Virus record (IMG/VR): IMGVR_UViG_2869924733_000008
Source of the DNA: a virus
Lineage: Duplodnaviria; Heunggongvirae; Uroviricota; Caudoviricetes
Strand: one strand, 5' to 3'
DNA: 39,122 nt
Positions within the stretch are counted from its first letter, which is position 1. Every line of letters begins with the position of its first letter. The notes under the pieces are model-generated. The model saw nothing but the letters and a program-made list of their open reading frames with translations, searched no databases and was not told the origin of the DNA. This document shows, piece by piece, positions 13,710 to 37,169 of this stretch. The position numbers and the translations under genes are program-made.

Positions 13710-13752
13710 AAAAAGAACAAATGGTAGTGTCCGCTATTGCCAGTACACCTCA

Positions 13753-15064: not shown

Positions 15065-15590
15065 TATCAGCCTCCGTTGTCCGGGTGATCACGTTGTCAA
15101 AAAACATCAGGGAAGTTGTGACCACAGGGTTAATCTGCATCTGAATATCAAGCGTCCAGCGCGGTTCATACTGTTGCTGACCGTTGGGGAATGTGGTGTT
15201 AAAGGGCTCTGAGCAATACAGCGGGGAAATCAGCCCACCGCCCTGCCGGAAAAGCCGTACGGAAAATTCAGACCGGAAAAGCGTTGCCAGCACCTGCGCG
15301 TTATCTGCCGCGTGAGGGCCGTAGAAATCAAGCTGGCAACGCCATTTTGTGGTACGGGTGATATGCTGAGAGCCCTCACCAGCCTGCGCTGGCGCAGAAT
15401 ATGCCACTACCGCAGTGGATAATCCGGTAACATCAATGCCCGTCATGGTGATGAAATTCCCCTGAGGCATCGGGACCTGGTTCTGCTGCGTTCGTTCAAT
15501 CCCGGCATCAGAAAAAAGCCCCCGGAGATAATCACCGAGGGCCTGATAAAGAGCGCTTTCCGTAACGGAGAGGGTCACACCTGAAGGCAT
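15045..15590 (-). CDS. Phage structural-module protein, function unknown (neck/tail completion position)
   Basis: 181-aa ORF, tightly packed with overlapping start/stop in the head-tail joining region. Confidence 0.4.
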
Positions 15591-15940
15591 ACAATAACCC
15601 TCGTCCAGTCAGGCCAGATTTCCGGTACCTCAATCACCAGCCACGTTTCATCGCCAATAACAAATTTATCGCCTCCCTGTTGCCGGGCACGGTTAAGCCC
15701 GCACCAGTTACCATCGGTATACAATGTGGCGAAAACTCCCTGCTGGTTAAGATTATCAAGATGACGTAAATCAGCCTGGGTGACAGCCTGCTTTTGCACC
15801 CTGACAGAAACCGGATCTTCATACTCAGGTACGCGGGAATAATCTGCCTGCTGTGTACTCCCGCGGGAACGATAAACCAGCGCGTCTGTAAAGGGATTTA
15901 CCCGACGTACTGCGCCGGAAACAATACCGTGAAAGTTCAT
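15575..15940 (-). CDS. Phage structural-module protein, function unknown
   Basis: 121-aa ORF with ATGA overlap to the upstream gene. Confidence 0.4.
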   Translation of the reverse strand: MNFHGIVSGAVRRVNPFTDALVYRSRGSTQQADYSRVPEYEDPVSVRVQKQAVTQADLRHLDNLNQQGVFATLYTDGNWCGLNRARQQGGDKFVIGDETWLVIEVPEIWPDWTRVIVCLQV

Positions 15941-16521
15941 TTTTTGCCCCCGTCTACAGAATAATCAACGCTGTCCATCATATGTCCGGTTTCAATAAGC
16001 GGGTTGTTAAAACCCTTTTGCCGGGCAGTGGATGCAGCGTTGGGCGGACTTTCCCAGTCGCGAACAGACATCTGCAACTGCCCTTTGATATGTTCTCCCA
16101 TACACACCAGAGCGGTCGCAGTATCAAAATCATTCGCCCGTAATAAGGTCGCCATTTTTTCGCCCCATTCGGGACTTTTATGTTCGATCATCTTACGGAA
16201 GAACGGACGGGGGGGAATGGTGACCGTGTGCTCAGGAATAACCACATCCTGAACAAAATTCCCTTTACCGGCTTTGACAAAGCGGTGCCCGGTTTCTCCC
16301 GTTTTTTCGTTATAGCGAAAGTGGAGCGTCTGCTCACGGGCGGGTATGACCGCTCTTCCACCAAACTCCTGAACTGCGGCAATATAAGCCACTGACGTAC
16401 CGTCAGGGTAAGTTGCTCCCTCAAGAAAACCCACTTTGAGTTTTTTACCCAATGAAAGGTTCGCGGCAACCTGTTTCAGCTTCTGCCGGAACTGTTTGCC
16501 ACCTGTGACTTTATTTACCAT
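15937..16521 (-). CDS. Head-tail connector protein (HK97 gp10-like, tentative)
   Basis: Probable start is the internal ATG at 16521 ([11 protein letters not shown]...); the longer ORF to 16791 would overlap the upstream gene. Family call is from weak recalled similarity. Confidence 0.4.
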
Positions 16522-16969
16522 CGACGCCCCTCCCGTATCCCCGGTAATAATGCCCCGGATATCGCGAAGGTGACCCCCCGGAATGATACTGCATTGAGCG
16601 GTATGGCGCTGTCGCCTGCCAGTAGTCAGCACCCCAGGGGGTCTGGAGATACCACCACGACGCATCATTACTGCCGCTATTATCCACCGATACCGATACA
16701 GAACCTTCCGACGCACTGGTGATACGCCCCACCAGACCAGCCTGCCCGTCTCTCCCGTTTCCCAGCCCCCGCAATGCGCACAGATGCGCAACCAGCAGGA
16801 ACAGAAGCTGTTCCCGCTCCTTCAGGTCGGTAACCGGACTGTCGTCCGTGTTATCCTGGTACAACGCGGTCGCCTGGTTAAACACCGCCGTCAGTAGCTC
16901 CGGTGTCACCGTGGAAAACTCCGGGTACAGACTGACAAACATCCGACAGTCAAACATCACCGTACCCAT
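16511..16969 (-). CDS. Head completion/connector protein (DUF4054-like)
   Basis: 152-aa ORF in the conserved slot after the capsid gene; N-terminal ..[14 protein letters not shown].. pattern (recall). Confidence 0.4.
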
Positions 16970-16974
16970 AGCGT

Positions 16975-17322
16975 TTACTCCTGAGGTTTACCCATCACTT
17001 CATCATTGCGGTTAACGCCCGGAGCCGGATTTTTCTGCGGCAGCGGTTCAAGGCCGGATTTAACGGCTTTCTGCTCCGTAGCCTGCGAGACTGCACTGTT
17101 CGCCTTATCCTGCGCAAAAATAACGCCATTTTTCACATAAGGTTGCTGTCCGTGCTCCGCCAGCCAGGCGTCAAAAAACACCTTATCGACCTGCGTCAGA
17201 CCATAGCCCCCCACAATTTTAACCGCGTTATTCCGCCAGCCTGTCACCTGAACCCGTTTCTGCCCCACTTCCAGCACCAGACCGTTCGGCAGTTTACAGC
17301 CCACTGTTACCATTTCAGCCAT
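16975..17322 (-). CDS. Small phage head-associated protein, function unknown
   Basis: 115-aa ORF between the capsid and connector genes. Confidence 0.35.
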
Positions 17323-17325
17323 AAC

Positions 17326-18354
17326 TCACACCCCAAGCATTTGTGCATACGCCAGCGGCTGGCGAATAATCGCCCCCCAGGTACCAGCGGATTTTTTCTG
17401 TTTCCAGGAAGACGTATCTACCCCTACCGCATGGGCGCGCATTTTTTCAGTGAAAGCGCAATAGCCTGTATCCTGTTCACCCAGACGCTCCGCGATAAGC
17501 TGTACCAGCTCGCCAGCGTCAGAGGTGTATTCCACCGCCGTTTCAATGGTCATCGCCGGGAAATTTTTCGCCAGCAGATCGGACACGTTAACCCTGTACT
17601 GGTTTGTTTTGGTGAGGTTCACCTCTGCCAGCGGCGACATGCACAGTTTCATTTTGTCGGTACGCTCAATATGACCGTTAGTCTGTTTCACCAGTTGCTT
17701 AAAGAGTTTCACGATATCGTCATACACGCCCTGTCCGTCCTTGTCGTCCCACTTCAGTTTACCGTCAACGGTATCCGGGGTGATTGGTGCAGATAACGAC
17801 GGATCATTCAGCAAACCGTAGTTCGTCAGTCCGGCAATACCGTAGAAATAGGACTTATTCTGGAACTTATTCAGCGTCAGTGCTGACGCCACGTTCAGCT
17901 CTGCCGCCCAGCCAATACGGGCTGCGCCGTACATCTCCAGCTCACGTTCGCCCCATACGGTGAAGGTCTGGAAGTGATAGCTCTGGCGCGGTACCCAGTT
18001 GACGTTTGCGCTTACCACCCCGTTGTTGCTGTAATCCCCGTAGGAACTCACCTCCCCGTCAGATTCTGCAATCGGGAATTGTGCCGACAGTGTCGTCCAG
18101 TCACCTTTTTTGGTTTCGCCCAGAATCTGAGCGGCTTTCATCGGCGTCACCAGCACGCGGATCAGTTCTGGCTCAACGTAATTGGTGAAATACGCAGGGA
18201 TACCGCTGTTAGCCGCTGTGACCAGCGCAGGCTGCGCGTCCATCGCCAGTCCGTAATCGGCGGCGTACTCCTTCGGCAAATAAGCCTGTGCTCCGGGAAG
18301 AATAATCCCGTAGTCGCGACTTGCCGTCGCATAATGCTGTTTAAATTTATTCAT
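17326..18354 (-). CDS. Major capsid protein (putative)
   Basis: 342-aa ORF in the canonical position downstream of the portal/scaffold genes; size and composition fit a major capsid protein. Confidence 0.5.
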
Positions 18355-18836
18355 TATTTGCTCCAGGTACTGATCTTAATGACTTCTTTTGCCGCCGCAG
18401 CGCTGGCAACGGAAAACCAGGTTTCGACAAACCCCGCCATCGAGGTGCCAGCCGCCCCCGTGGCTATCTCCCCGGTGGCCAGTGAGGCAAATACTTTCTG
18501 CCCGATCGTCGCAGTAGTGGTGGTCAGCGCCCAGAAATCCCCCGACACCATCAGGGTGCATTCACGCCCCGGATAAATGGTGTTCGAGTCCCCGGCCAGC
18601 CATTCCACAATGGAAGCCTGCCCGTCACGAGGAACAAAACCCGCCGGTGCGCCGGCCCCCTTATTAGCGGCAACACCTTTGGTTACCCAGGCAAACCGGG
18701 CAATTACCAGCCCGTCAGGGCCGGTAATCAGCCCGCCATCTCCCGCCACATACGAGGCATGAGGGTTAGCACTGGCAAACGCCCCCGGAATACCCGGTGC
18801 CGGGTACTGGTTCATGTGTGTCTGAAAAGTATTCAT
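18354..18836 (-). CDS. Head structural/decoration-type protein (putative)
   Basis: 160 aa, Gly/Ala-rich, directly upstream of the capsid gene with a 1-nt overlap. Confidence 0.35.
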
Positions 18837-18837
18837 A

Positions 18838-20198
18838 TCAGTAACCTCGTTTCAGTTTTGCACCGGGGAAATCTGCCGCAAACGTCGATGCGCTGGCCTG
18901 ATCCATCGCCACACGGGGAGAGGATTTGGCCGTCTGCTTCTGCTCAACGGCAAACTTCACCATGCTGCGGTACGCACCGGGGTGAATACCCTGAATATCG
19001 ATCCCCGTCTGTTCCAGCGCGGTACGGTAAACATCTTCGGCGCAGTCCATCGCCACCACATCGCCACCACATCGCCAATCAGCGGTCGCACTTCAGCTTC
19101 AGCCACACGGACGGCGCGGAAATTTTCAGCAGCCCGTTTCGTTGCCTGGTCAGTTGCCAGCCTGATTGCTGCATCCATCGCAGGTTTATCGACTTTCACA
19201 TCGTCGGGTTTCACATCAGCCTCTTTTGTTTCGGGGGCTTCGTCGGTTGTCGGAGACAGTGCGGATTTAATTTTTTCCAGCACATCATCAGGAACTTTGC
19301 CGGACAGCAACGCCAGTACACTTTCCATCGGGCTGTCGGTATCAAATGCCTTCGACTCGTCAGTTAACCCGGTATCATCATCCCCGACCAGCTCCGGTAC
19401 GGCTTCTGCTGATTCCATCAGTTGCGCCAGCTCCACCGGTTCAATATCCATATCCTGTGCCAGCCGTTCGCTGTAAGCAGTTTTTACCGCGCTGGCGATA
19501 GCTGCCGGACGCTTATACTGCGCCATCAGGCGTAACAAATCCCCGGGAGCCGCATCCTGCGCCAGACGCGGCGCAAGATAGGTTCCCAGCGCGGTAAGCA
19601 CCGCCACTTCTTTTTTACTCAGTTTCATGCGTTTTAGCTCCTGAGGGAGAGAGTCCATAACAAGACAGTCCGACCCTACCCGGCCATCGCCGACCAGGGC
19701 CACATGATTTCCCACGATATTCCGCATAACGCCGTCATACGGCTCACCGTCGGGGGTGGTTCCCGGCGTCATATCTGCCACATAGGCATATGACGATGAG
19801 ATTTCCCGTTGTTCATCCGTTTCTATCCCCGCGATGGCGGAGTTGTCCCAGATGGACATGCCGTTAACCAGATAGGTACCGTCAAACTCGCTGTTGGCAT
19901 GAGTCGTCCCCACCCGGTACTCGCGCGCGGGCGCGCCCGGATAATCGGGTTTGTGTCGGCACAGGACGGGAATATTGTTGAAGGTTGAAACTGCCTTGCG
20001 CAGTTCATCGGGGTCACGGTAAAGCTGATAAAGTTTTTTGGGGTCGAGTCCCAGCGCTTCCGCCCCCGGTATTTCATACCCGAAATAACCGCAGACGTTC
20101 GCCTTGCTGAGATTACTGCGCTCAATCTGGAGGCGACCGACTTTATCGAACTGCCTTACCGATGCCCGGTCAAACGCCAGCATTTCGGTAATAATCAT
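18838..20198 (-). pseudogene. Head scaffold/protease-like gene, frameshifted by an 11-bp tandem duplication
   Basis: Removing one copy of the duplicated 11-mer at 19051-19072 joins ..PLIGDVVAM to [13 protein letters not shown]... (ORF 18838-19059) in frame. Probable start is the ATG at 20198 ([10 protein letters not shown]..). Confidence 0.6.
19051..19072. repeat. Perfect 11-bp tandem duplication (CGCCACCACAT x2 on the plus strand) inside a head gene
   Basis: Read directly from the sequence; causes a frame change in the minus-strand gene. Confidence 0.9.
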
Positions 20199-20966
20199 TT
20201 TTTCTCCAGTCCGGGAATAACGGCCTCCCAGCCACACCGGCAGTTGATTTCTTCGCCCGGCAGTACCCACTTACCATCCAGAAACATCCCCTTTCGCAGG
20301 TCAAACCGTTTACCGTTCGCCTTCACATGCGACGGACGCCATGTTTTACCCGCGCGGGAATGCCTCCAGACACCTTCAGTGATACCCACCGAACGCTGTC
20401 TGGCGGCCTGCATTACCGACGTTGCCTTATTGTTCTGGTCGCGGGCAATCAGCACCGCGCGCCGTCGTGTGATGCCGTAACGTTTTTCCAGTTCATCGGT
20501 CAGCGTTTTCAGGTCACGTCCCCGGCCAACAGACTGCATGACCAGTGTTTCCACCTGGGGGAGATGTTGCTGCGGGATGGAGCGAATGAGGTTCACATTC
20601 TCCGTGATGCTGGCCTGAAGTGCGGTATTCATCTCCGTTGTCATACGGAAAGGAACCGTAAACCCGGCATCACGGAGCGCAGTGTACAGTGACGCATCGC
20701 TGTTTTTCAGGACATCACCGGCAAACCGCCTCGCCAGCCGCAGGGCCATTTCGTCAAAATTTTTCTGCCAGCGCCGGGCAAGTTGCTGCATGGCACCACG
20801 CATCAGGTTAACGGGGGACGCATCCTGCGCGAGGTCTGTTTTACGGTACTCAGCCCGCAGCCAGTAAAGTACACTGTTGTGCATCCCACTGACGGCATTA
20901 TCCAGTTGTCTGCGGTACCAGGCCTCAATCCCCGCGTTGGGTGAAATCCGCCTCAGGGTCTGCATT
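20195..20966 (-). CDS. Head morphogenesis protein (Mu F / SPP1 gp7-like)
   Basis: Sits between the portal and scaffold-like genes; C-terminal ..[10 protein letters not shown].. fits the Mu-F-like family. Start is ambiguous: Met at 21016, 20966 or 20881. Confidence 0.55.
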
Positions 20967-22475
20967 CGGGCCTTGCGGCGGATTTTCTTCGGTGTTGTCA
21001 ATTTCAGTGTCGTCAATTTCGATGTCCCCGCTCAGGTCAATACCGCTGTACGGGCTGTCCTGCGCAGTCGCCAGCCGTTCGCGTACTTCGTTATTGGTCA
21101 CTGCTCCGGTGCTCTCATAAATCTGATCCGTTTCCGCCTCAGTTTTACGGATATTCGCCAGTTGCTCGCGCGTCAGCTCATGCAGGGGTTCAAATTCAAA
21201 CGTGATATCAGGATCGATATCGCCGAACTCAGACAACTGGATAATATCCAGCACCTTTTTCAGCGGTTTCTTCAGAAGACGGGTGGCAAGTGCAGCAATG
21301 GTGTCGTAAAACCCCCGGATTTCACCCTCACTCGACGCATTCAGTCCCGTTGGGCTCAGCCCGGCGAATTTTACGGACGGTATGGCACTGACAAAGAACA
21401 TGTGTTCCTGTACCTGCGCCTGAAGGGTGTCGAGGCCGCTCAGGGGAGTGTTGAACTGGAAAAACTCTTCGTTCGTCTTGTCCAGCATCAGCAGCCCGCG
21501 GTTATCACGGGTACGGTTAAACAACTCCGCGCGTTTTGCGTAATTCGGGTCCCTTTTACCACTTAATACCTGTGTCATATCCGTCTTAATCCCGCTCAGC
21601 GAAAACGAATGCAGCATATCGCCCACGCTGTCGCGTGTTCGCAGCCAGTTATCAACATAAGGCTCAGCAATCTGAACCAGTGACAGGCCGCCAAAGTTGT
21701 AGGCCGGCTTCAGCATGTCCGGAACCGGACGGGAGATCAGATCAATCATGCGGCTGGCGTGAACCGTTTTTCCCATTACGTACCATTCGGACGGACGGTA
21801 AAAATCATCACTCAGCGGATTATCCGCGTTATATATACCCGGATACGTCCAGACGGGTTCAATAACACGAAGCCCCAGCAGGGAACCTTTCGGGATTTTT
21901 TTGTCGGAAATAAACAGTCCGGATCCCAGCTCCGCCGGGTCAGTCCAGGCAGATATACCCGATGGCGAACGCACATCAATATAAATCTGCCCTCGCCCGA
22001 AAAAGCCGTCGTGCTCAATCGCCAGTCTGAAAACGTCCTGTACGTTATAGTGCTCCAGTGCGTCAGTAAGCTGCGCTATGCGTGACGCGTGGCTGTCGTC
22101 CCCTTCTCCGACCGCCTTAACCTTTATCCACTTACGGGTCATCTCCTCGGCAAGCACACTGACCATACGCCGGTACTCCGGTAACTGCGCCTGAAGTGCC
22201 AGATACGGATAGCCCGGGAAACCACCATAAACAAAATCAGGATAATGACTGTTCAGGGTGTCATACGGTGTTGCATCCATTGCCAGCACAGCATCGCGAA
22301 CCGGTGCCGGGATAACGCCCGGTGGTGGCTCATAGCGAACAAACTCCCTCCGTGGTTTCTGCCGGACGGAAGCGATCACCTCATCGTTAATTTCCGGTGG
22401 CTGTGGTTCAGGTTGTTTGTCCGGTACCGCCGGCGCTGACGGTTCTTTTCGTTTAAACGGCCACATCAGATCCAC
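20925..22475 (-). CDS. Portal protein (putative)
   Basis: 516-aa ORF immediately downstream of the terminase large subunit gene, with an acidic C-terminus. Confidence 0.6.
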
Positions 22476-23754
22476 TCCATAAAGTCATCAGAAATTACGA
22501 TGGGCATTTCCATCGGGGCATAAGCAATCATCACAGAATCAGCCAGGTTTGGAGATTTCGTTCCGTCAGGTTGCTTATCCACAAGAATTTTTCCGGTGGC
22601 ATTTTTTGACCAGGTAGGTTGTGACAGCTCCATCAACAGCCGGTCTTTATTTTCCATTGTGCTGCTGATGGAAATAATCTCATCCGGGTCATACTCCATA
22701 CCCTGTAGTGCACGAAATGTATTGCGGAATAATTTGCGAAGATGCCACCACCCCTGGGCTTTGGCATTGACAAAAAAGTCCTTATTCAGACGAGCCGGTT
22801 TACCATTATCACCGGGAACAGCTTCATTTTCAGGATGAAACACGCTCCCGCTGCCCCGGAATGGAGTGGCGGTGATTTGACAGATGCCCTCCGCTTCACG
22901 CAGTTCGTTGATAGCGCGCGCATCACCACGAACGCCAGCACCCAATCCGTCCTCATCAAAGCGAAACTCATCGGCACCAAAGTCATCGCACAGACCAAAA
23001 ACCTTAACCACAGAGTCATAGATGTCACTCCCCTTACCTGACCACTCCTGTACGTCATTCAGCAGGATGCCATAACGGAGCGAACAGGCGTTTTTATCCC
23101 GCCCTTCGTCGGCGACATCCATTGCACCAAGCCGTTGGCCGCCGGGCTGAATGCCCAGTCTGATATGTGCATCAACCGCAGCCTGTACCCATTCTGAGGG
23201 GATCAGGATGCCTTCTGCTGATGCCTGGTAATTAAGATCCAGTTCCTGGGCAACGATGACTGGGTTATCAATTTTCTCGCACTCCTTGTGATACCACTCA
23301 TCGTCTTTACGCGGATCGCTACGCCAGTGAAACGTAAACACCGGGATTTTTCCACTGTGCCGCTTCTGTGCGAAGGGGTTGTTCATGCCGTTAACCGATG
23401 AGAGATCGATACGACGTCGGGTTGTCTGAGAAAGCGCGGCATCAATAAGTAATGGTCGCTGGAGAAAAGCAGCCTCATCCACAAAATAAAGGGTCGTACG
23501 GTCACCACGACCGATATTATCGCCAGCCTCACCTTTGATAACCGCGCCAGTTTCAGGAAACTCAACACGCATATATGGCGCATGCTTCTTCTCGCTCCAC
23601 GAACCGCGAAACTCTACAGGTAGTGTTTCCACGAACTTGCACGCCTTCCAGAACAATGCTTTCGGGTCACCGGTGCTGTCGACGTATTCCTCTTTACGGG
23701 AGCCGAAACCGATAACCATTTCTTTGTTGAAGAGACAAAGCGAGCAGGCCAGAG
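22466..23754 (-). pseudogene. Terminase large subunit gene, 5'-truncated by IS600
   Basis: Walker-B-like [11 protein letters not shown] is present but no Walker A lies upstream; the frame runs straight into the IS600 end at 23755 (the apparent Met at 23770 is IS sequence). Confidence 0.65.
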
Positions 23755-24283
23755 TGAGGTGTACTGGCAATAGCGGACACTACCATTTGTTCTTTTTTTA
23801 AGCAGCCATCTGATGATATTTTTCCCTGAAGGCTGCCGGGGAGATATTCCCCAGACGAGAGTGACGACGCTGACGATTGTAGAAAATCTCAATGTATTCC
23901 CGTATTACTGAGATGGCTTCATCCCGGTTATTAAAACGATAGTGGCTCAGGCTCTCATTTTTCAGCGTTCCCCAGAAGCTTTCCATCGGAGCGTTGTCGT
24001 AACTGTTACCTTTACGCGACATTGATGTTTTCAGACCAAACTGCTCCTGTATGACCCGGTAATCGTATGCGCAGTACTGTGAACCTCGATCAGAGTGGTG
24101 GATTAGCCCGGCAGGTGGGCGCTGGCTCCTGAGCGCCATAAACAGGGCTTTACCTGTCAGCTCTTTTGTCATGCGCTCTCCCATGGCGTAGCTAGACTGG
24201 CCCCCTGAATCTCCAGACAACCAGTATCACTTAAATAAGTGATAGTCTTAATACTAGTTTTTAGACTAGTCATTGGAGTACAG

Positions 24284-24649
24284 ATGATTGATGTCTTAGG
24301 GCCGGAGAAACGCAGACGGCGTACCACACAGGAAAAGATCGCAATTGTTCAGCAGAGCTTTGAACCGGGGATGACGGTCTCCCTCGTTGCCCGGCAACAT
24401 GGTGTAGCAGCCAGCCAGTTATTTCTCTGGCGTAAGCAATACCAGGAAGGAAGTCTTACTGCTGTGGCCGCCGGAGAACAGGTTGTTCCTGCCTCTGAAC
24501 TTGCTGCCGCCATGAAGCAGATTAAAGAACTCCAGCGCCTGCTCGGCAAGAAAACGATGGAAAATGAACTCCTCAAAGAAGCCGTTGAATATGGACGGGC
24601 AAAAAAGTGGATAGCGCACGCGCCCTTATTGCCCGGGGATGGGGAGTAA
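24284..24649 (+). CDS. insC: IS2 InsC (orfA, 121 aa)
   Basis: [47 protein letters not shown]... matches recalled IS2 InsC. Confidence 0.9.
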
Positions 24650-25512
24650 GCTTAGTCAGCCGTTGTCTCCGGGTGTCGCGTGCGCAGTTGCACGTCATTC
24701 TCAGACGAACCGATGACTGGATGGATGGCCGCCGCAGTCGTCACACTGATGATACGGATGTGCTTCTCCGTATACACCATGTTATCGGAGAGCTGCCCAC
24801 GTATGGTTATCGTCGGGTATGGGCGCTGCTTCGCAGACAGGCAGAACTTGATGGTATGCCTGCGATCAATGCCAAACGTGTTTACCGGATCATGCGCCAG
24901 AATGCGCTGTTGCTTGAGCGAAAACCTGCTGTACCGCCATCGAAACGGGCACATACAGGCAGAGTGGCCGTGAAAGAAAGCAATCAGCGATGGTGCTCTG
25001 ACGGGTTCGAGTTCTGCTGTGATAACGGAGAGAGACTGCGTGTCACGTTCGCGCTGGACTGCTGTGATCGTGAGGCACTGCACTGGGCGGTGACTACCGG
25101 CGGCTTCAACAGTGAAACAGTACAGGACGTCATGCTGGGAGCGGTGGAACGCCGCTTCGGCAACGATCTTCCGTCGTCTCCAGTGGAGTGGCTGACGGAT
25201 AATGGTTCATGCTACCGGGCTAATGAAACACGCCAGTTCGCCCGGATGTTGGGACTTGAACCGAAGAACACGGCGGTGCGGAGTCCGGAGAGTAACGGAA
25301 TAGCAGAGAGCTTCGTGAAAACGATAAAGCGTGACTACATCAGTATCATGCCCAAACCAGACGGGTTAACGGCAGCAAAGAACCTTGCAGAGGCGTTCGA
25401 GCATTATAACGAATGGCATCCGCATAGTGCGCTGGGTTATCGCTCGCCACGGGAATATCTGCGGCAGCGGGCTTGTAATGGGTTAAGTGATAACAGATGT
25501 CTGGAAATATAG
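24607..25512 (+). CDS. insD: IS2 InsD (orfB, 301 aa)
   Basis: [41 protein letters not shown]... matches recalled IS2 InsD. Confidence 0.9.
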
Positions 25513-26029
25513 GGGCAAATCCAGTAGCCGACAATTTCGCACGTATAAACATCTTTGATGCCAGCGAAGTACAACCATCCCTCCTGTGTGGCAACATACG
25601 TCAGGTCCGCCACCCAGACCTGATTTGGTGCTGTAGGAGCGAACGTCTGGTTCAGCAGATTTGGCGCAACTGGCAGATTGTGGTTCGGGTTCGTAGTCGC
25701 TCTGAACTTGCGTTTCTGCTTACAGCGTAGCCTTAGCTCCTTACGAAGACGTGCCAGTCGGTCACGACCAACGATGATGCCATTCTCTGCCAGCTCCGTC
25801 TGGAGCCGCCGGGTTCCATATGTTTCGCGAGTGCGGATATGTGCCACCTTAATCTCCAGTTTTAGCCGCTCATCACTTTGTTTTCTGTCTGAGGGTTCAT
25901 GCTGTACCCAGTTGTAATAACCGCTCCTGGATACACCAAATACCTGACACATCGCTTCAATGGGAAATTGTTGTCGCCATTGTTCGATTAACGCGTATTT
26001 TTCAGCGACTCCTGTGCAAAATACGCTGT

Positions 26030-27250
26030 TGTAGATTCAATCTGTCAATGCAACACCCCTTTCAATTATCTCTTTCGGTGTTTTGAACTTCAGTGTCTTT
26101 CTCGGTCTGTTGTTTAGCTGAGCAGCAACCAGATCTAGTTCATGTTGAGTATATTGGGCAAGACATGTCTTTTTAGGAAAGTACTGCCGAATTAGCCCAT
26201 TTGTGTTCTCATTTGTTCCCCGCTGCCAAGGACTCTGAGGATCGCAGAAGTAAACTTTAACGCCGGTGCTGACAGTAAATTCTAGATGTCTGGCCAGTTC
26301 CATTCCTCTGTCCCATGTCAGTGATTTTCTGAGTTCTGACGGTAAACTCAGGAATTTGTCGGTAAGAGCCTGATTTACTGAGACAGAATCTTTGCCCCTG
26401 AGTCTAAGGATGATCGTATAACGTGATTTTCGGTCTACAAGTGTGGCTATATGAGAGTTTTTTGTACCTGAGACTAAATCGCCCTCCCAATGCCCCAGAG
26501 AGCGTCTGTTATCGATATTTCGGGAACGTTCGTGAATTGGTGTTCCGTTCACTATGTTAATCGTACCTCTTTCGCCTTTGCGGGTATGACGCCTGCCATG
26601 GCGAAGGCTATGCGACCGTCGCAGATGCTGTATATTCAGGTGGTGTAGCGCTTCACGGCTACGAAAGTACAGCGTTTTATAAATTGTCTCAGGTGATATT
26701 CGCAGCGTTTTTTGACGTGGTTTTGTTCGCCTTAACCATCCTGATATTTGCTCTGGAGACCATTTCATCTCCAGCTTTTCCAGAACAAGCTTTCGCAATG
26801 GTAAATTTTGATCCAGTAAGCACGGTTTTGGCCTTTTCGCCATTCTGTTGGCTCGGTTATTAGCATCAACAGCTTTGTAATAGCGTCTGCCCCGATTACG
26901 CTGAACTTCACGTGAGATCGTCGAAGGACTGCGATTCAGCGCAGTAGCTATCGCACGAATGCTCATTTTGGCTGACAAACCAGCTCGTATCTCCTCGCGC
27001 TCAGACAGTGTCAGGTGAGCTACAGCCCGCTTACGCTCATGGGGTTTTATGCCGCCAGTATCCCTTAACATAGTGAAGATCGTTCCGGGTTTTGAACCCA
27101 GGATATTCGCTATTTCACTGAAGCCTGTTCCGTTCTTCCATAGTTCAAAAACAGAGGCTTTTTCCTCTGCTGTAAATGTTCGTCTCATTCAAAAAACCTC
27201 CGCAACCCCATGTTTTCACATAACTGTTGCGTTGACCAATTGAATCTACA
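26030..27250 (-). mobile_element. IS30 (1221 bp) inside IS600 copy 2
   Basis: IS30 terminal repeats at both ends; 2-bp duplication (GT on the plus strand) at 26028-29 and 27251-52. Confidence 0.9.
26037..27188 (-). CDS. insI: IS30 transposase (383 aa)
   Basis: [38 protein letters not shown]... full length, identical to the other intact copies. Confidence 0.95.
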   Translation of the reverse strand: MRRTFTAEEKASVFELWKNGTGFSEIANILGSKPGTIFTMLRDTGGIKPHERKRAVAHLTLSEREEIRAGLSAKMSIRAIATALNRSPSTISREVQRNRGRRYYKAVDANNRANRMAKRPKPCLLDQNLPLRKLVLEKLEMKWSPEQISGWLRRTKPRQKTLRISPETIYKTLYFRSREALHHLNIQHLRRSHSLRHGRRHTRKGERGTINIVNGTPIHERSRNIDNRRSLGHWEGDLVSGTKNSHIATLVDRKSRYTIILRLRGKDSVSVNQALTDKFLSLPSELRKSLTWDRGMELARHLEFTVSTGVKVYFCDPQSPWQRGTNENTNGLIRQYFPKKTCLAQYTQHELDLVAAQLNNRPRKTLKFKTPKEIIERGVALTD

Positions 27251-27952
27251 GTTGCTTTTTTTAATATATCTCGCTCAAGGCGAGCTTCATTTAACGCCTT
27301 ACGCAGTTGCAGAATTTCAGATTCCAGTTCAGCCACCGTGCGGGAACCAGGAGTACCGAGCCCTTTTCTGGCGGCGGTAACCCATTGTCCTAAAGTGCCT
27401 TCAGGAAGGGATAATCGGGAAGCGCCTTCACTGATCGAAAATTGATTTTCAAGAACCGTTCTGACAGCTTCGGCTTTGAACTCTTTAGAGTAACGTTGGG
27501 TTTTTCTGCTCATTATTAGCTCCTTCTGATGCCATTCTATTTCAGGAAGGAGTGTCCGTTAAACTCAGGCTACCTCAGGTCTTCCGACGATTCTGTCATT
27601 GTTCATTAAGCAAAAGTTTCCATGCTGTTTGTGCTTATTCTAAGCAACCGGGCAGCATCATACGGGGCAATTATGGCCGCATTACCATACATGCAACTGT
27701 ACATAGCTAATTACCTGGCTGACACCATGCATTTGTCAGCAGAGGAGCACGGCGCGTATTTGTTGCTGATGTTCAATTACTGGCAAACAGGAAAGCCAAT
27801 ACCCAAAAACAGGTTGGCAAAAATTGCCCGTCTGACTAACGAGCGATGGGTTGATGTTGAACCATCCTTGCGGGAGTTTTTTTGTGATAACGGCGACGAA
27901 TGGATGCATCTTCGGATTGAGGAAGATCTGGCATCTGTCAGTGGATTTGCCC

Positions 27953-28858
27953 CTATATTTCCAGACATCTGTTATCACTTAACCCATTACAAGCCCGCTG
28001 CCGCAGATATTCCCGTGGCGAGCGATAACCCAGCGCACTATGCGGATGCCATTCGTTATAATGCTCGAACGCCTCTGCAAGGTTCTTTGCTGCCGTTAAC
28101 CCGTCTGGTTTGGGCATGATACTGATGTAGTCACGCTTTATCGTTTTCACGAAGCTCTCTGCTATTCCGTTACTCTCCGGACTCCGCACCGCCGTGTTCT
28201 TCGGTTCAAGTCCCAACATCCGGGCGAACTGGCGTGTTTCATTAGCCCGGTAGCATGAACCATTATCCGTCAGCCACTCCACTGGAGACGACGGAAGATC
28301 GTTGCCGAAGCGGCGTTCCACCGCTCCCAGCATGACGTCCTGTACTGTTTCACTGTTGAAGCCGCCGGTAGTCACCGCCCAGTGCAGTGCCTCACGATCA
28401 CAGCAGTCCAGCGCGAACGTGACACGCAGTCTCTCTCCGTTATCACAGCAGAACTCGAACCCGTCAGAGCACCATCGCTGATTGCTTTCTTTCACGGCCA
28501 CTCTGCCTGTATGTGCCCGTTTCGATGGCGGTACAGCAGGTTTTCGCTCAAGCAACAGCGCATTCTGGCGCATGATCCGGTAAACACGTTTGGCATTAAT
28601 CGCAGGCATACCATCAAGTTCTGCCTGTCTGCGAAGCAGCGCCCATACCCGACGATAACCATACGTGGGCAGCTCTCCGATAACATGGTGTATACGGAGA
28701 AGCACATCCGTATCATCAGTGTGACGACTGCGGCGGCCATCCATCCAGTCATCGGTTCGTCTGAGAATGACGTGCAACTGCGCACGCGACACCCGGAGAC
28801 AACGGCTGACTAAGCTTACTCCCCATCCCCGGGCAATAAGGGCGCGTGCGCTATCCAC
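27953..28858 (-). CDS. insD: IS2 InsD (orfB, 301 aa)
   Basis: Same protein as 24607-25512, apart from one substitution. Confidence 0.9.
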
Positions 28859-29181
28859 TTTTTTGCCCGTCCATATTCAACGGCTTCTTTGAGGAGTTCA
28901 TTTTCCATCGTTTTCTTGCCGAGCAGGCGCTGGAGTTCTTTAATCTGCTTCATGGCGGCAGTAAGTTCAGAGGCAGGAACAACCTGTTCTCCGGCGGCCA
29001 CAGCAGTAAGACTTCCTTCCTGGTATTGCTTACGCCAGAGAAATAACTGGCTGGCTGCTACACCATGTTGCCGGGCAACGAGGGAGACCGTCATCCCCGG
29101 TTCAAAGCTCTGCTGAACAATTGCGATCTTTTCCTGTGTGGTACGCCGTCTGCGTTTCTCCGGCCCTAAGACATCAATCAT
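28816..29181 (-). CDS. insC: IS2 InsC (orfA, 121 aa), cut off from the IS2 left end by IS630
   Basis: [13 protein letters not shown]...; the longer ORF to 29238 is read-through from the IS630 end. Confidence 0.85.
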
Positions 29182-29198
29182 CTGTACTCCAATGACTA

Positions 29199-30351
29199 AA
29201 TAGCTGCGCTTAATACCGCTACACTTTTGCCAGTCCATGTTTGCCTCCGGGGAATGGGCTGACGGTTTCCATAAAATGGCGAACTTTTTTCAACAGTTGC
29301 CACATTGAGCGGCACTGATGATTACGCGTTATTGTGTCGTGAAGTGCCTGCCATAGCCGTTCAACATGATTCACCCATGGCGAGTAAACCGGCTGATAAA
29401 TGACCCTGAACTTCGGGTTCTCCTTCAGCCAGCTCTGTGTTTCCCGGCTTTTGTGGATAATGTAGTTGTCCACGATCAGCGTGATGGTTTTCGCCCGACG
29501 GTATGTCGCTTTAAGCCGCTTCAGCAGGCTGATGAACAGCGCCGAACTTTTGCTGTTGCCGCCCACATAGCTGACTTTACCTGTCCCGCTGTGCAGCGCT
29601 CCGGCCAGATAATATTTTTCATTCTGTCCCGGCGTGACCACCCGTTTTTGCTGTCCGCGCAGTTGCCAGTCCGCACCGATTTTGGGATAAAGATGGATAT
29701 CCACTTCATCTTCATAAAAGACCGGATGCTCTGCGCTGCATTCGTCCAGTGCTTTATGGATTGCTGCCATCTTTTCATCTTTATGCGGGTCACGGATACG
29801 CAGAGTTGGCGCAGCCCTTCGCCACACAATCCCCGCAGACGGCAACCAGCGGCGAACGGTTCCGGCATTTAACTGGCAACCGGTTATCTCATTGATTTTT
29901 ATTGCCAGCAGTTCTGTACTCCAGCGTGAACGCTGGTAGACAAAGTCGCCGGGAGAATGTTTTACCAGCTCACGTAACAGTGTGCAGATATGCTCAAACG
30001 GCCAGCGACGGGCACGCCCGGCAGGTAATGATTTCAGTCCCTCAACACCCGACTGCGTGAACCAGTTAATCCAGCGTCCAACAGAGGAACGGGCGCAGCA
30101 GAGCGTTCTGGCAACGTCGCTGACACGGTCGCCCCGGTGCAGCATCAGCATGGCAGTCAGTCTGCGGGCATAATTTTTATCGTGTGTTTTATGGATGGCT
30201 TTCTGCATCAGGCGTCGTTCGTCACGGGAAATTGGTGCTATGATCGGCATTGCTCAGTCCGGTTGGTGATTTGTTTTGATTTGGCGATTGATCAGATCGC
30301 ACAATCCGGGCTAAGTTCCCTCAAAGTGATCTACTATTCCGCGCAGCTATT
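29199..30351 (-). mobile_element. IS630 (1153 bp) inserted in the IS2 left-end region
   Basis: Terminal repeats AATAGCTGCGC.../...GCGCAGCTATT; TA duplication inside the IS2 sequence ..AGACTAGTC.. (CTAG target). Confidence 0.85.
29219..30250 (-). CDS. IS630 transposase (Tc1/mariner superfamily, 343 aa)
   Basis: [31 protein letters not shown]... matches recalled IS630 transposase; size is exact. Confidence 0.85.
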
Positions 30352-30536
30352 TAGTCTAAAAACTAGTATTAAGACTATCACTTATTTAAGTGATACTGGT
30401 TGTCTGGAGATTCAGGGGGCCAGTCTAGTCAGAGAAAAATTAACCAAAAAATCAGCCGCAGGAAAAGCATCTGTTCAGGCCAGAAGAAGCAGAAAGGAAG
30501 CAGATGTTCAAACAAAACAAGAGAGAAATTTAACAG

Positions 30537-31289
30537 GTGTTCGAACATGATGCCAACACAAAGGCAACTAATAAAGATACAGATAAAGCTCTAAAAACAG
30601 ATCTAACCCATCCCAAACCCTTCCCTTCCGGAAGGGAGTTTCGGGATTTTGTGGCTGGAGTGCTTGAGGGGAGATTATCTGGCGGTACTGCAGCGGAATT
30701 TTGTAATTCTGCGGTGGTTGCGTTGCAGGCTGCTGGCCTGGATGTCTGTCGTGAGTATCCGGTGCCAGAGCGTGGTGACGGTTGCGGAGGGCGGATTGAT
30801 ATCGTCGTGACTGACAGGAACGGTGTCCGGTGTGGGATCGAGCTTGACCGAAATTCTCCGCGACAGAAATCACTGCTCAAAATCGGTGCTGTTGAAACCG
30901 GGATATGTGTCTTGCGGCGCAGTGATATCGCAAGGCACACCGAGCAGGGAATTCTGGTTATCGGTGGGGCTGTTCGCCAGAAAAAATTTGACCCGTTGTC
31001 AGTTGATCTGCCCGACTGGTTGCCAGAAACACTCTGGCATGAGTGGGTCCAGTTCAGGCAGGCATTGCGAAAACCGATTCGAACGGAGCAGGGCGCTAAC
31101 GGGGCGATACGGGAACTGGAAAAATTCCGTCAGCAGGGTTTTACACCTGAGCAGGTGATTCGACACAGCATCGCCAATGAATACCATGGTCTGTTCGCGC
31201 CGAAAGGTGTTCGGCCTGAGACGTTGCTCCGACAGGTTAACACCGTCTCGTTGCCGGACAGTGCGATCCCGCCAGGCTTCAGGGGGTAA
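30537..31289 (+). CDS. Phage replication protein with DnaT-like C-terminal domain
   Basis: C-terminus ..VNTVSLPDSAIPPGFRG parallels the recalled E. coli DnaT C-terminus (..NTVSEPDSQIPPGFRG). Apparent GTG start overlaps the stop of the upstream DUF1376 ORF; the two may be one frameshifted gene or two genes. Confidence 0.5.
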   Translation: MFEHDANTKATNKDTDKALKTDLTHPKPFPSGREFRDFVAGVLEGRLSGGTAAEFCNSAVVALQAAGLDVCREYPVPERGDGCGGRIDIVVTDRNGVRCGIELDRNSPRQKSLLKIGAVETGICVLRRSDIARHTEQGILVIGGAVRQKKFDPLSVDLPDWLPETLWHEWVQFRQALRKPIRTEQGANGAIRELEKFRQQGFTPEQVIRHSIANEYHGLFAPKGVRPETLLRQVNTVSLPDSAIPPGFRG

Positions 31290-31295
31290 CAGACC

Positions 31296-32042
31296 ATGAA
31301 AAATATTGCGACAGGAGGCGTTCTGGAGCGTATCCGCAGACTGACCCCACCACATGTAACCGCCCCATTCAGAACGGTTGCGGAGTGGCGCGAGTGGCAA
31401 CTTGCTGAAGGCCAGAAACGTTGCGAGGAGATCAACCGCCTGAATCGTCAGTTGCGGGTGGAAAAAATCCTGAACCGCTCCGGCATCCAGCCGTTGCACC
31501 GGAAGTGTTCGTTTGCGAATTACCGGGCGCAGAACGACGGTCAGCGACATGCACTGAGTCAGGCGAAATCCATAGCTGACGAACTGATGACAGGCTGTAC
31601 GAATTTTGTGTTCAGCGGTAAGCCCGGCACCGGAAAAAATCATCTTGCAGCCGCGATTGGCAACCGGCTGATGGCGAAGGGGCGTAGCGTGATTATCGTC
31701 ACCGTGTCCGATGTCATGAGCGTGTTGCATGAGAGCTACGACAACGGCAAATCCGGTGAAAAATTTTTACAGGAGCTTTGTGGTGTTGACCTGCTGGTCC
31801 TGGATGAAATTGGCATGCAGCGGGATACGAAAAACGAGCAGGTGGTACTGAACCAGATTGTTGATCGCCGGACGGCATCGTTACGCGGTGTGGGGATGCT
31901 GACAAATATTAACCATGCAGCGATGAATACACTTCTCGGCGAGCGGGTGATGGATCGCATGGTCATGAACGGCGGGCGCTGGGTGAATTTTAACTGGGAG
32001 AGCTGGCGTCCGAATGTTAGCCATTCGAGGGTTGTTAAGTAG
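31296..32042 (+). CDS. DnaC-like helicase loader (IstB-type AAA+ ATPase)
   Basis: Walker A GKPGTGKNHLAAAIG and Walker B LLVLDEIG; 248 aa; typical replication-module partner of the DnaT/YdaU-like gene. Confidence 0.85.
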   Translation: MKNIATGGVLERIRRLTPPHVTAPFRTVAEWREWQLAEGQKRCEEINRLNRQLRVEKILNRSGIQPLHRKCSFANYRAQNDGQRHALSQAKSIADELMTGCTNFVFSGKPGTGKNHLAAAIGNRLMAKGRSVIIVTVSDVMSVLHESYDNGKSGEKFLQELCGVDLLVLDEIGMQRDTKNEQVVLNQIVDRRTASLRGVGMLTNINHAAMNTLLGERVMDRMVMNGGRWVNFNWESWRPNVSHSRVVK

Positions 32043-32056
32043 TTTCAGGAGGATTT

Positions 32057-32158
32057 ATGGCGAAACCTTTTACTCCCGAACAGCGGGAAGAACTGAAGAC
32101 GCGAATTGTGGAACTCGTGCATCAGGACGGTCGGGTCACGATTCGGCAGTTGTCAGAT
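32057..32158 (+). pseudogene. Small phage gene truncated after 34 codons by the IS911 end
   Basis: MAKPFTPEQREELKTRIVELVHQDGRVTIRQLSD, then a TGA supplied by the first bases of the IS911 inverted repeat. Confidence 0.4.
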
Positions 32159-32166
32159 TGAAGTGG

Positions 32167-34295
<2,129 letters not shown>

Positions 34296-34527
34296 GTAGC
34301 CTTTTTTAATATTTCATTCTCCATTTCAATGCGTTGTAGCTTTTTCCTCAGCTTACGTATTTCGATTTGTTCTGGTGTTATCGGAGAGGCTTTTGGTGTT
34401 TTGCCCTGACGCTCATCACGCAGTTGTTTGACCCATCTTGTCATTGTGGAAAGGCCAACATCCATAGCTTTGGCGGCATCTGCCTGAGGTGTACTGGCAA
34501 TAGCGGACACTACCATTTGTTCTTTTT

Positions 34528-35346
34528 TTAAGCAGCCATCTGATGATATTTTTCCTTGAAGGCTGCCGGGGAGATATTCCCCAGACGAGAGTGACGACGC
34601 TGACGATTGTAGAAAATCTCAATGTATTCCCGTATTACTGAGATGGCTTCATCCCGGTTATTAAAACGATAGTGGCTCAGGCTCTCATTTTTCAGCGTTC
34701 CCCAGAAGCTTTCCATCGGAGCGTTGTCGTAACAGTTACCTTTACGCGACATTGATGTTTTCAGACCAAACTGCTCCTGTATGACCCGGTAATCGTATGC
34801 GCAGTACTGTGAACCTCGATCAGAGTGGTGGATTAGCCCGGCAGGTGGGCGCTGGCTCCTGAGCGCCATAAACAGGGCTTTACCTGTCAGCTCTTTTGTC
34901 ATGCGCTCTCCCATGGCGTAGCCGACAATTTCGCACGTATAAACATCTTTGATGCCAGCGAGGTACAACCATCCCTCCTGTGTGGCAACATACGTCAGGT
35001 CCGCCACCCAGACCTGATTTGGTGCTGTAGGAGCGAACGTCTGGTTCAGCAGATTTGGCGCAACTGGCAGATTGTGGTTCGGGTTCGTAGTCGCTCTGAA
35101 CTTGCGTTTCTGCTTACAGCGTAGCCTTAGCTCCTTACGAAGACGTGCCAGTCGGTCACGACCAACGATGATGCCATTCTCTGCCAGCTCCGTCTGGAGC
35201 CGCCGGGTTCCATATGTTTCGCGAGTGCGGATATGTGCCACCTTAATCTCCAGTTTTAGCCGCTCATCACTTTGTTTTCTGTCTGAGGGTTCATGCTGTA
35301 CCCAGTTGTAATAACCGCCCCTGGATACACCAAATACCTGACACAT
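34528..35346 (-). CDS. IS600 orfB (272 aa)
   Basis: Same protein as 12891-13709 with three substitutions (S10G, S/C, R/K). Confidence 0.8.
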
Positions 35347-35423
35347 CGCTTCAATGGGAAATTGTTGTCGCCATTGTTCGATTAACGCGTATTTTTCAGC
35401 GACTCCTGTGCAAAATACGCTGT

Positions 35424-36644
35424 TGTAGATTCAATTGGTCAACGCAACAGTTATGTGAAAACATGGGGTTGCGGAGGTTTTTTGAATGAGACGAACATTT
35501 ACAGCAGAGGAAAAAGCCTCTGTTTTTGAACTATGGAAGAACGGAACAGGCTTCAGTGAAATAGCGAATATCCTGGGTTCAAAACCCGGAACGATCTTCA
35601 CTATGTTAAGGGATACTGGCGGCATAAAACCCCATGAGCGTAAGCGGGCTGTAGCTCACCTGACACTGTCTGAGCGCGAGGAGATACGAGCTGGTTTGTC
35701 AGCCAAAATGAGCATTCGTGCGATAGCTACTGCGCTGAATCGCAGTCCTTCGACGATCTCACGTGAAGTTCAGCGTAATCGGGGCAGACGCTATTACAAA
35801 GCTGTTGATGCTAATAACCGAGCCAACAGAATGGCGAAAAGGCCAAAACCGTGCTTACTGGATCAAAATTTACCATTGCGAAAGCTTGTTCTGGAAAAGC
35901 TGGAGATGAAATGGTCTCCAGAGCAAATATCAGGATGGTTAAGGCGAACAAAACCACGTCAAAAAACGCTGCGAATATCACCTGAGACAATTTATAAAAC
36001 GCTGTACTTTCGTAGCCGTGAAGCGCTACACCACCTGAATATACAGCATCTGCGACGGTCGCATAGCCTTCGCCATGGCAGGCGTCATACCCGCAAAGGC
36101 GAAAGAGGTACGATTAACATAGTGAACGGAACACCAATTCACGAACGTTCCCGAAATATCGATAACAGACGCTCTCTGGGGCATTGGGAGGGCGATTTAG
36201 TCTCAGGTACAAAAAACTCTCATATAGCCACACTTGTAGACCGAAAATCACGTTATACGATCATCCTTAGACTCAGGGGCAAAGATTCTGTCTCAGTAAA
36301 TCAGGCTCTTACCGACAAATTCCTGAGTTTACCGTCAGAACTCAGAAAATCACTGACATGGGACAGAGGAATGGAACTGGCCAGACATCTAGAATTTACT
36401 GTCAGCACCGGCGTTAAAGTTTACTTCTGCGATCCTCAGAGTCCTTGGCAGCGGGGAACAAATGAGAACACAAATGGGCTAATTCGGCAGTACTTTCCTA
36501 AAAAGACATGTCTTGCCCAATATACTCAACATGAACTAGATCTGGTTGCTGCTCAGCTAAACAACAGACCGAGAAAGACACTGAAGTTCAAAACACCGAA
36601 AGAGATAATTGAAAGGGGTGTTGCATTGACAGATTGAATCTACA
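35424..36644 (+). mobile_element. IS30 (1221 bp) inside IS600 copy 3, opposite orientation to its host element
   Basis: IS30 terminal repeats; 2-bp duplication at 35422-23 and 36645-46. Confidence 0.9.
35486..36637 (+). CDS. insI: IS30 transposase (383 aa)
   Basis: Full-length, identical protein to the other intact copies. Confidence 0.95.
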   Translation: MRRTFTAEEKASVFELWKNGTGFSEIANILGSKPGTIFTMLRDTGGIKPHERKRAVAHLTLSEREEIRAGLSAKMSIRAIATALNRSPSTISREVQRNRGRRYYKAVDANNRANRMAKRPKPCLLDQNLPLRKLVLEKLEMKWSPEQISGWLRRTKPRQKTLRISPETIYKTLYFRSREALHHLNIQHLRRSHSLRHGRRHTRKGERGTINIVNGTPIHERSRNIDNRRSLGHWEGDLVSGTKNSHIATLVDRKSRYTIILRLRGKDSVSVNQALTDKFLSLPSELRKSLTWDRGMELARHLEFTVSTGVKVYFCDPQSPWQRGTNENTNGLIRQYFPKKTCLAQYTQHELDLVAAQLNNRPRKTLKFKTPKEIIERGVALTD

Positions 36645-37169
36645 GTTGCTTTTTTTAATATATCTCGCTCAAGGCGAGCTTCATTTAACGCCTTACGCAG
36701 TTGCAGAATTTCAGATTCCAGTTCAGCCACCGTGCGGGAACCAGGAGTACCGAGCCCTTTTCTGGCGGCGGTAACCCATTGTCCTAAAGTGCCTTCAGGA
36801 AGGGATAATCGGGAAGCGCCTTCACTGATCGAAAATTGATTTTCAAGAACCGTTCTGACAGCTTCGGCTTTGAACTCTTTAGAGTAACGTTGGGTTTTTC
36901 TGCTCATTATTAGCTCCTTCTGATGCCATTCTATTTCAGGAAGGAGTGTCCGTTAAACTCAGGCTACCTCAGCCACCGTGTATTTCTGGTCAACAACCAG
37001 TTGAGCGGATTCGCGTTTAAACTCTGCGCTAAAATTTCTTTTTTTCATTGGAGCACCTGTGTTGTTCTGAGGTGAGCATATCACCTCTGTTCAGGTGGCC
37101 AAATTCAGTGTGCCACTTCATATCTTAAACTACCGGAATGAACTGCTGCATGGAGAAACGCTTTACCTA

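Follow-up and report, generated by a model that had tools for sequence, protein, structure and literature searches.

An IS600 composite beside a truncated terminase gene in a Rac-site prophage of Shigella dysenteriae: a probable scar of local inversion and deletion

Here we analyze a 39,122-nucleotide stretch of viral DNA (the window; IMG/VR record IMGVR_UViG_2869924733_000008, Caudoviricetes), in which a copy of the insertion sequence (IS) IS600 carrying nested IS2 and IS30 elements lies between the terminase large subunit gene terL and phage replication genes. A first-pass annotation of this DNA, made from the sequence alone, described the composite as a deletion junction. Comparison with intact relatives points instead to a scar of inversion plus deletion, since the flanks of the composite stand in a non-native relative orientation. 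At least one inversion and one deletion are required, and a single deletion is insufficient, because the 2.1-kb replication block to the right of the IS600 is flipped and its far side ends at a second IS without a target duplication, IS911, beside a truncated intR gene. The history that we favor, with a probability of about 0.7, is local to a prophage at the Rac site: an inversion by homologous recombination between copies of one IS, followed by a deletion across another. The coordinates of all features are given in Table 1, where primes denote truncated genes.

The window is an exact match to a stretch of CP027027.1 from S. dysenteriae. It represents a degenerate prophage inserted at ttcA, the Rac attachment site, because intR' lies at its right end and ttcA and dbpA come next in the sister genomes CP026824.1 and UYIS01000021.1, continuing beyond intR'. 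The assignment to this site agrees with the 100% identity of the 3' part of intR and with the 98.4-99.7% identity between the ydaT'-ydaU-ydaV DNA and its counterparts in the VL40 and FDAARGOS_944 prophages at ttcA. The 417-aa TerL' is a protein recorded under S. dysenteriae. A literature search on the accession CP027027 gave no match.

The interval occupied by the composite, hereafter IS600 copy 2, consists of IS sequence only. Its tips are the right inverted repeat (IRR) at position 23755, beginning with TGAGGTGTACTGG, and the left inverted repeat (IRL) at position 27577, and its length of 3823 bp is fully accounted for as 1264 + 1331 + 5 + 1221 + 2. Once the nested elements and their duplications are subtracted, the 1264 bp of IS600 proper are 99.7-100% identical to the other copies. 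The IS2 has the length and ends of that element and a 5-bp duplication, and it is 100% identical to the IS2 of strain CFSAN029787. The IS30, a family recognized by terminal repeats of about 26 bp and a 2-bp duplication, has the full length of 1221 bp, GT on both sides, and an open reading frame (ORF; 26037-27188) of 383 aa. Self-comparison and reading of the ends thus confirm the composite as it was first described, with IS2 in orfB and IS30 in orfA. The triple composite of strain EC488 was considered as the same structure and rejected: its total size is equal, but there the IS2 is inside the IS30.

The absence of a target duplication around copy 2, also noticed in the first pass, was reproduced as well. 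Copy 2 has GAG to its left and GGT to its right, in place of the identical 3-bp sequences expected after simple insertion, whereas copy 3 of the window is bounded by a clean GCC duplication. The lack of a duplication indicates rearrangement after insertion and leaves the identity of the IS600 unaffected. At the same time, every nested or younger insertion has duplicated its target (GTAGC for IS2, GTCAG for the second IS2, GT for IS30, GCC for IS600 copy 3, and TA for IS630). IS600 copy 2 is without function.

The left flank of copy 2 is the truncated terminase gene, in which DNA homology to intact terL ends at position 23752. The ORF at 22466-23770 matches PHROG 2 (terminase large subunit) and is 99% identical to residues 112-539 of the intact 539-aa TerL from E. 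coli VL40, RMDEC465, and CFSAN029787; with VL40 TerL the protein alignment covers residues 110-539. The C-terminal RNase-H-like nuclease domain was located at residues 267-528 by comparison of a full-length relative with solved domains (8dkr, E = 1.8e-30; Sf6 gp2, E = 4e-21), and it is kept entirely in the window copy. The lost residues 1-111 include the octapeptide KSREMGLS (98-105), and with it the putative N-terminal Walker A motif (P-loop) is missing from the window copy. This octapeptide may be a deviant Walker A of the lambda gpA type, similar to KSARVGYS in lambda gpA. The terminase ORF is a 5'-truncated pseudogene; a full-length terminase with its natural start at this position is excluded. 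The earlier descriptions of a terminase deprived of its Walker A end and running into the IS, and of a gap between the modules where the genes for the terminase small subunit (terS), lysis, and late regulation should be, therefore stand: residues 1-111 are absent, and the latter genes are absent from the window and present in the intact relative CFSAN029787.

The terL homology and the tip of IRR are separated by the dinucleotide AG. At the corresponding positions intact terL has TC, or CC in an allele of 79% identity, and AG is the same in all assemblies that bear the junction. A natural terL allele with AG was considered as its source and rejected, as even alleles only 79% identical still have CC or TC.

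The right flank of copy 2 is the 3' end of ydaT, and the GGT at 27578-27580 stems from the target duplication that IS600 originally made in this gene, being one of its two copies. The ydaT side is a genuine IS600 insertion, because the predicted reciprocal product exists exactly. This 146-aa fusion, consisting of YdaT residues 1-131 (through GGT) and the read-through into IRR, is the protein WP_078167410.1 of Shigella boydii. The phage DNA between the IS600 and IS911 scars, 2.1 kb altogether, comprises the last 32 bp of ydaT, ydaU, ydaV, and the first 102 bp of the DUF977 gene. The replication genes of the first-pass annotation are only this inverted 2.1-kb remnant, which meets the IS with the 3' end of ydaT.

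Of the genomes available, the enteroinvasive E. coli strain CFSAN029787 (NZ_CP011416.1, about 4.676-4.720 Mb), with a single prophage at ttcA, is the best model for the ancestral order. Its structural module is 99.6-99.7% identical to that of the window and has the same orientation relative to intR and ttcA, and ydaT is also present. The late and replication genes of this prophage read towards the tail, in the order tail, head, portal, terL, terS, lysis, tRNAs, Q-like genes, nin region, DUF977 gene, replication genes, ydaT, cro; in the early-left part, cI, recE, xisR, and intR read the opposite way, towards ttcA. In particular, ydaT has the same reading direction as terL, at a distance of about 14 kb. 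Unlike the window, CFSAN029787 has an intact terL (539 aa), terS, lysis genes, tRNAs, and Q-like genes, and its replication relies on a DnaB helicase and not on ydaU and ydaV. The ydaT-ydaU-ydaV module of the window is found at ttcA in VL40 and FDAARGOS_944, with 98.5-99.7% identity.

Against this background, window segments 13751-23752 and 38323-39122 give plus/plus alignments to CFSAN029787, and in the alignment to VL40 segment 27578-32162 runs opposite to intR. The window has terL' on its minus strand, with ydaT'-ydaU-ydaV on the plus strand, so that they diverge from the IS600, whereas a deletion would have left its flanks in their native relative orientation. The 2.1-kb replication block is therefore inverted relative to both of its neighbors, because terL and ydaT are co-directional in CFSAN029787 but lie on opposite strands here.

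For the following discussion the prophage is divided into five segments: A, the 3' part of terL and everything to the left of it; B, from the 5' end of terL through the 3' part of the DUF977 gene; C, the 5' part of the DUF977 gene, ydaV, ydaU, and the 3' end of ydaT; D, from the 5' part of ydaT through the 5' part of intR; and E, the 3' part of intR with ttcA. The ancestor would have had the order A-B-C-D-E, and the window reads A, IS600, inverted C, IS911, E. Comparison with intact homologous phages, proposed in the first pass as the way to define what is missing, thus identifies B and D as the segments absent from the window, which would amount to about 20 kb in an ancestor resembling CFSAN029787. 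They hold the 5' end of terL, terS, the lysis genes, the Q-like genes, nin, and the genes from cro and cI to xis, including the stretch from the 5' part of ydaT to the 5' part of intR.

The proposed history would convert this ancestor into the window in two steps. The first would be an inversion by homologous recombination between two opposed copies of one IS. This IS could be IS600, with copies in terL and in ydaT, in which case B and C would be flipped together, or IS911, with one copy in the DUF977 gene and another in intR, in which case C and D would be flipped. The second would be a deletion across the other IS (IS911-associated after the former inversion, IS600-associated after the latter), removing B and D, about 20 kb in total. 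Both variants fit equally well. IS600 copy 2 would then be a hybrid, or scar, element, with its IRL side representing the original insertion in ydaT (GGT) and its IRR side joined later to codon 112 of terL, and IS2 entered this already inactive IS600 after the scar was formed. We infer the order and the mechanism of the two events, as well as the loss of B and D from the genome as opposed to a move elsewhere. With regard to the latter, WP_078167410.1 occurs on four contigs, the longest of 4.86 Mb and thus shorter than the three scar-bearing S. dysenteriae chromosomes (4.97-5.10 Mb), a weak indication that these chromosomes no longer contain segment D.

Several observations weigh against this history. 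The two flanks of copy 2 are not alike as traces of real insertions: the ydaT side has its reciprocal partner WP_078167410.1, and for the terL side, which has a 2-nt filler, no partner was found. The terL junction is not flush, and AG is not predicted by a clean IS600 insertion with homologous recombination. None of the data searched contained an IS600 insertion at this point of terL, and the predicted TerL N-terminal fragments of 111 or 112 aa are not in the protein collection; a search for homologs of the TerL N-terminus retrieved unrelated truncations only. Neither of the reciprocal junctions (the terL N-terminal part with IS600, and the 5' part of ydaT with IRR) occurs in any complete E. 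coli genome, and the former has no match in viral contigs or in species-representative genomes; the latter set also lacks the window's own junction, and its negative result therefore has no bearing on the source genome. No genome in an intermediate state, with the inversion and without the deletion or the reverse, was found, and the order of the two steps is unproven. Finally, no single sampled genome joins the ydaU/ydaV replication genes and this structural module in one intact prophage: the replication module of CFSAN029787 is of the DnaB type, and the structural module of VL40 is in another prophage, about 1.07 Mb from ydaT-ydaU-ydaV, with replication, Q, lysis, and terS genes of its own.

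Some of these difficulties would be met by a one-step intramolecular transposition, in which the IS600 resident in ydaT attacked terL, producing an inversion and a duplicated IS, with one old and one new flank at each copy, and a later IS911-associated deletion followed. Such an event predicts the pattern seen at copy 2, with the old flank at IRL (ydaT, GGT) and the new flank at IRR (terL), and needs no prior IS600 insertion in terL, none of which was found. However, IS3-family elements are not known to produce replicative intramolecular inversions. This family transposes by copy-out/paste-in through a circle, in line with published work (PMC3219604, PMC7780238). Moreover, a flush junction would be expected in this case also, and the AG filler stays unexplained, so we consider such a transposition unlikely. 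Two further conjectures are improbable to a similar extent: AG could be a kept piece of the spacer of an IS3-family minicircle, left by imprecise end cleavage at paste-in, or the IS30 site described below could be a specific hot spot, or a place of reversible inversion in situ, through which IS3-family elements are systematically inactivated. If AG were indeed a minicircle spacer, the terL junction would be a direct product of transposition and not of recombination.

The separation of the two modules in VL40 invites another explanation, a large chromosomal inversion, in which an IS600 copy within the terL gene of an E217-like myovirus prophage would have recombined with one in ydaT of a separate Rac-site prophage, leaving the reciprocal junction far away. 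The modules of VL40 are in different prophages, 1.07 Mb apart and on the same strand, and an inversion between them would yield exactly the divergent junction of the window. However, the structural module keeps the side and the orientation relative to intR and ttcA that it has in CFSAN029787, and only the 2.1-kb block is flipped; a separate event would be needed to bring the structural module beside ttcA; and all contigs found to bear the exact reciprocal fusion of YdaT with IRR are shorter than the S. dysenteriae chromosomes. On these grounds a large inversion seems distinctly unlikely. A different pairing, in which copies 1 and 2 of IS600 in the window would have recombined to invert the DNA between them, was rejected, as the flanks CAG, TTG, GAG, and GGT do not pair as reverse complements.

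A single IS600-mediated deletion in a colinear phage genome, removing everything between the replication genes and codon 112 of terL, is the explanation closest to the first-pass annotation. It accounts for the absence of terS, lysis, and late-regulator genes and for an IS600 without target duplication, and ydaT and terL do occur about 14 kb apart in one prophage, that of CFSAN029787. We nevertheless regard it as very improbable, since a deletion preserves relative orientation, at odds with the opposite strands of terL' (minus) and ydaT'-ydaU-ydaV (plus); the IS adjoins the 3' end of ydaT instead of the replication module's distal end; and the other side of the block is a second scar, IS911 beside the truncated intR. 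Last, a repeat-induced misjoin of the assembly across IS600, envisaged in the first pass and conceivable in a repeat-dense region where the IS30 orientation varies among sister assemblies, is hardly credible: the junction is evidently authentic, because the same succession of terL', AG, and IRR recurs identically in four large assemblies (CP027027.1, PSSP01000001.1, CP026824.1, and UYIS01000021.1) and in at least six independent short-read contigs, reading 30-97 nt into IS600, and the junction of IRL with GGTCTTCC (ydaT') is identical in three chromosomes.

Table 1. Features of the window discussed in this study (positions are those of the window; aa, amino acids)
Feature	Position	Strand	Remarks
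IS66-family fragment	9410-10347		Truncated transposase gene 9442-10332; adjoins IS600 copy 1
IS600 copy 1	10348-13752	plus	With IS30 split by ISSfl7-like element; flanks CAG/TTG, no duplication
IS30 in IS600 copy 1	10675-12813 (split)		
ISSfl7-like element	11791-12704		914 bp, IS5 family, within IS30 of copy 1
terL'	22466-23752	minus	3' 1287 bp, residues 112-539 of 539; first 111 codons gone; ORF 22466-23770
AG filler	23753-23754		2 nt between terL homology and IRR tip; matches neither terL nor IS600
IS600 copy 2	23755-27577	minus	Carries IS2 and IS30; self-BLAST and end sequences; annotated IS600/IS2/IS30 in E. coli matches
IS2	24193-25523	plus	1331 bp, in IS600 orfB; GTAGC at 24188-24192 and 25524-25528
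IS30 in IS600 copy 2	26030-27250	minus	1221 bp, near 3' end of IS600 orfA, after IS600 position 327; GT at 26028-26029 and 27251-27252
ydaT'	27578-27609	plus	Last 32 bp of ydaT (toxin YdaT family), adjoins IS600 IRL; matches VL40 12001-12032 of extracted locus
ydaU	27622-31289	plus	DUF1376 replication initiator (Pfam DUF1376; E. coli YdaU annotation); split by second IS2
Second IS2	27942-30427		In ydaU; GTCAG duplication; holds IS630 29199-30351
ydaV	31296-32042	plus	DnaC/IstB-like ATPase; Pfam IstB_IS21; annotated ydaV / ATP-binding protein
DUF977'	32057-32158	plus	First 102 bp of DUF977 gene, cut by IS911 (codon 34); right end of inverted block 27578-32158
IS911	32159-37120	minus	About 1249 bp own sequence; flanks GAT/TAT, no duplication; second scar
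IS30 inside IS911	33075-34295		
IS600::IS30 copy 3	34485-36971		Inside IS911; complete, clean GCC duplication; IS30 at 35424-36644
intR'	37121-39122	plus	First 389 bp gone, native orientation; 100% match to CFSAN029787 intR (21455-22301 of extracted locus)
IS630 in intR'	37170-38322		TA duplication at CTAG

The nested elements of copy 2 had both been taken for later insertions, and the evidence separates them. In PSSP01000001.1 and UYIS01000021.1 this IS600 copy is without IS2; the insertion of IS2 into an already inactive IS600 is late, because these two genomes have the same junction without it. IS30 cannot be counted as a later arrival peculiar to copy 2: it occupies the same site in every junction-bearing genome seen and in all three IS600 copies of the window. 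The IS30 of copy 2 cannot, as far as the sequences tell, be timed relative to the junction, because the same IS600 site is occupied in about one fifth of E. coli genomes. Of 5,426 complete E. coli genomes, roughly 1,089 have the joint of IS600 with IS30 in the window orientation and roughly 628 have it in the opposite one, as counted with 100-nt probes covered to at least 80%; the counts are approximate, as the two ends of IS30 share about 26 bp. All four IS30 copies of the window are at one homologous position of the orfA gene of IS3-family elements, three in IS600 and one in IS911, in both orientations, and the flank of the site is GTAGCCTTTTTTAATAT in IS911 and GTTGCTTTTTTTAATAT in IS600. 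This pattern suggests that the site is an IS30 hot spot, that the composite spreads as one unit, or that the two act together. The nested IS600::IS30 of E. coli at large, present in hundreds of complete genomes, has the same position in orfA, the GT duplication, and either orientation; compared with it, copy 2 has an additional IS2 in orfB.

The orientation of IS30 also differs among the sister genomes. The IS30 of copy 2 is flipped at the same site in CP026824.1 (window 26030-27250 versus 8409-9629 of the extracted locus), and the one borne by IS911 is flipped in PSSP01000001.1 (window 33075-34295 versus 19683-20903 of the reverse-complemented extracted locus). The differences could reflect conversion between composite forms, re-insertion at a hot spot, or an assembly error.

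Other states of the locus are also represented among the sister genomes. PSSP01000001.1 is without IS600 copy 3, both IS630 copies, and the ISSfl7-like element. UYIS01000021.1 (7389-10000 of the extracted locus) has the entire ydaT'-ydaU-ydaV block deleted, leaving terL' about 2.6 kb from intR' in the order terL', AG, 3' part of IS600, IS30, 5' part of IS911, intR'. In this genome the block was lost by recombination of the IS30 in copy 2 with that in IS911. A related terL in CP026877.1, a Shigella-type chromosome, is cut at about residue 131 and has IS600 between terS and terL (8189-10483 of the extracted locus), and the available data suggest that the terminase region has been repeatedly struck by independent IS events.

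The locus fits well with what is known about IS elements in these bacteria. In Shigella, IS600, IS911, IS2, IS1, and IS4 have expanded and bring about deletions and rearrangements (PMC7373316); in E. coli, large rearrangements arise when homologous IS copies recombine with each other (PMC5009759). The window shares with the IS decay of Shigella genomes the same IS families, the older copies without target duplication, as expected after recombination or adjacent deletion, and the stepwise erosion in sister genomes. Particular to this locus are the inverted 2.1-kb remnant, bounded by a different scar element on each side, and the 2-nt filler at one junction; neither is a difference in kind. The Rac prophage of E. 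coli K-12 (intR, xisR, recE, racR, ydaS, ydaT, ydaU, ydaV) is at the same ttcA locus, has the same ydaT-ydaU-ydaV module, and is also defective. In contrast to K-12 Rac, the late region of the window is an E217-like myovirus module, as in CFSAN029787; recE and cI/cro are gone; and the replication block is inverted. Every IS in the window belongs to a known type, and the genome is public; we regard the locus as ordinary, routine IS-driven prophage decay with nothing new in kind.

The prophage of the window lacks the packaging ATPase, terS, lysis genes, late regulator, repressor region, and an intact integrase, and it is unable to excise, replicate, lyse, or package. The main value of the analysis is in correct annotation: the terminase should be described as a pseudogene, and ydaU and ydaV as an inverted orphan fragment and not as the replication module of a functional phage. 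In addition, the locus provides a compact, datable case of stepwise prophage erosion by IS600, IS911, and IS30 in Shigella, with the sister genomes as successive states, and it could be used as a lineage marker to recognize this clade of S. dysenteriae.

Rearrangements of the window are not limited to the terminase region. IS600 copy 1 joins the IS66-family fragment to a C-terminally truncated tail-sheath gene, and about 4 kb encoding baseplate, tape measure, and tube proteins are gone in comparison with CFSAN029787. The tail-sheath gene (13753-15064; DUF3383, E217 gp31-like) is divided by an internal stop near 14499 into ORFs of 187 and 254 aa; in PSSP01000001.1 it is one ORF of 443 aa. The two IS630 copies, one within the second IS2 and the other in intR', are each 1153 bp long, encode a transposase of 343 aa, and are inserted at CTAG with a TA duplication. 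Finally, an IS110-family transposase gene (398 aa; 4081-5277) lies on the opposite strand within the tail-fiber gene cluster.

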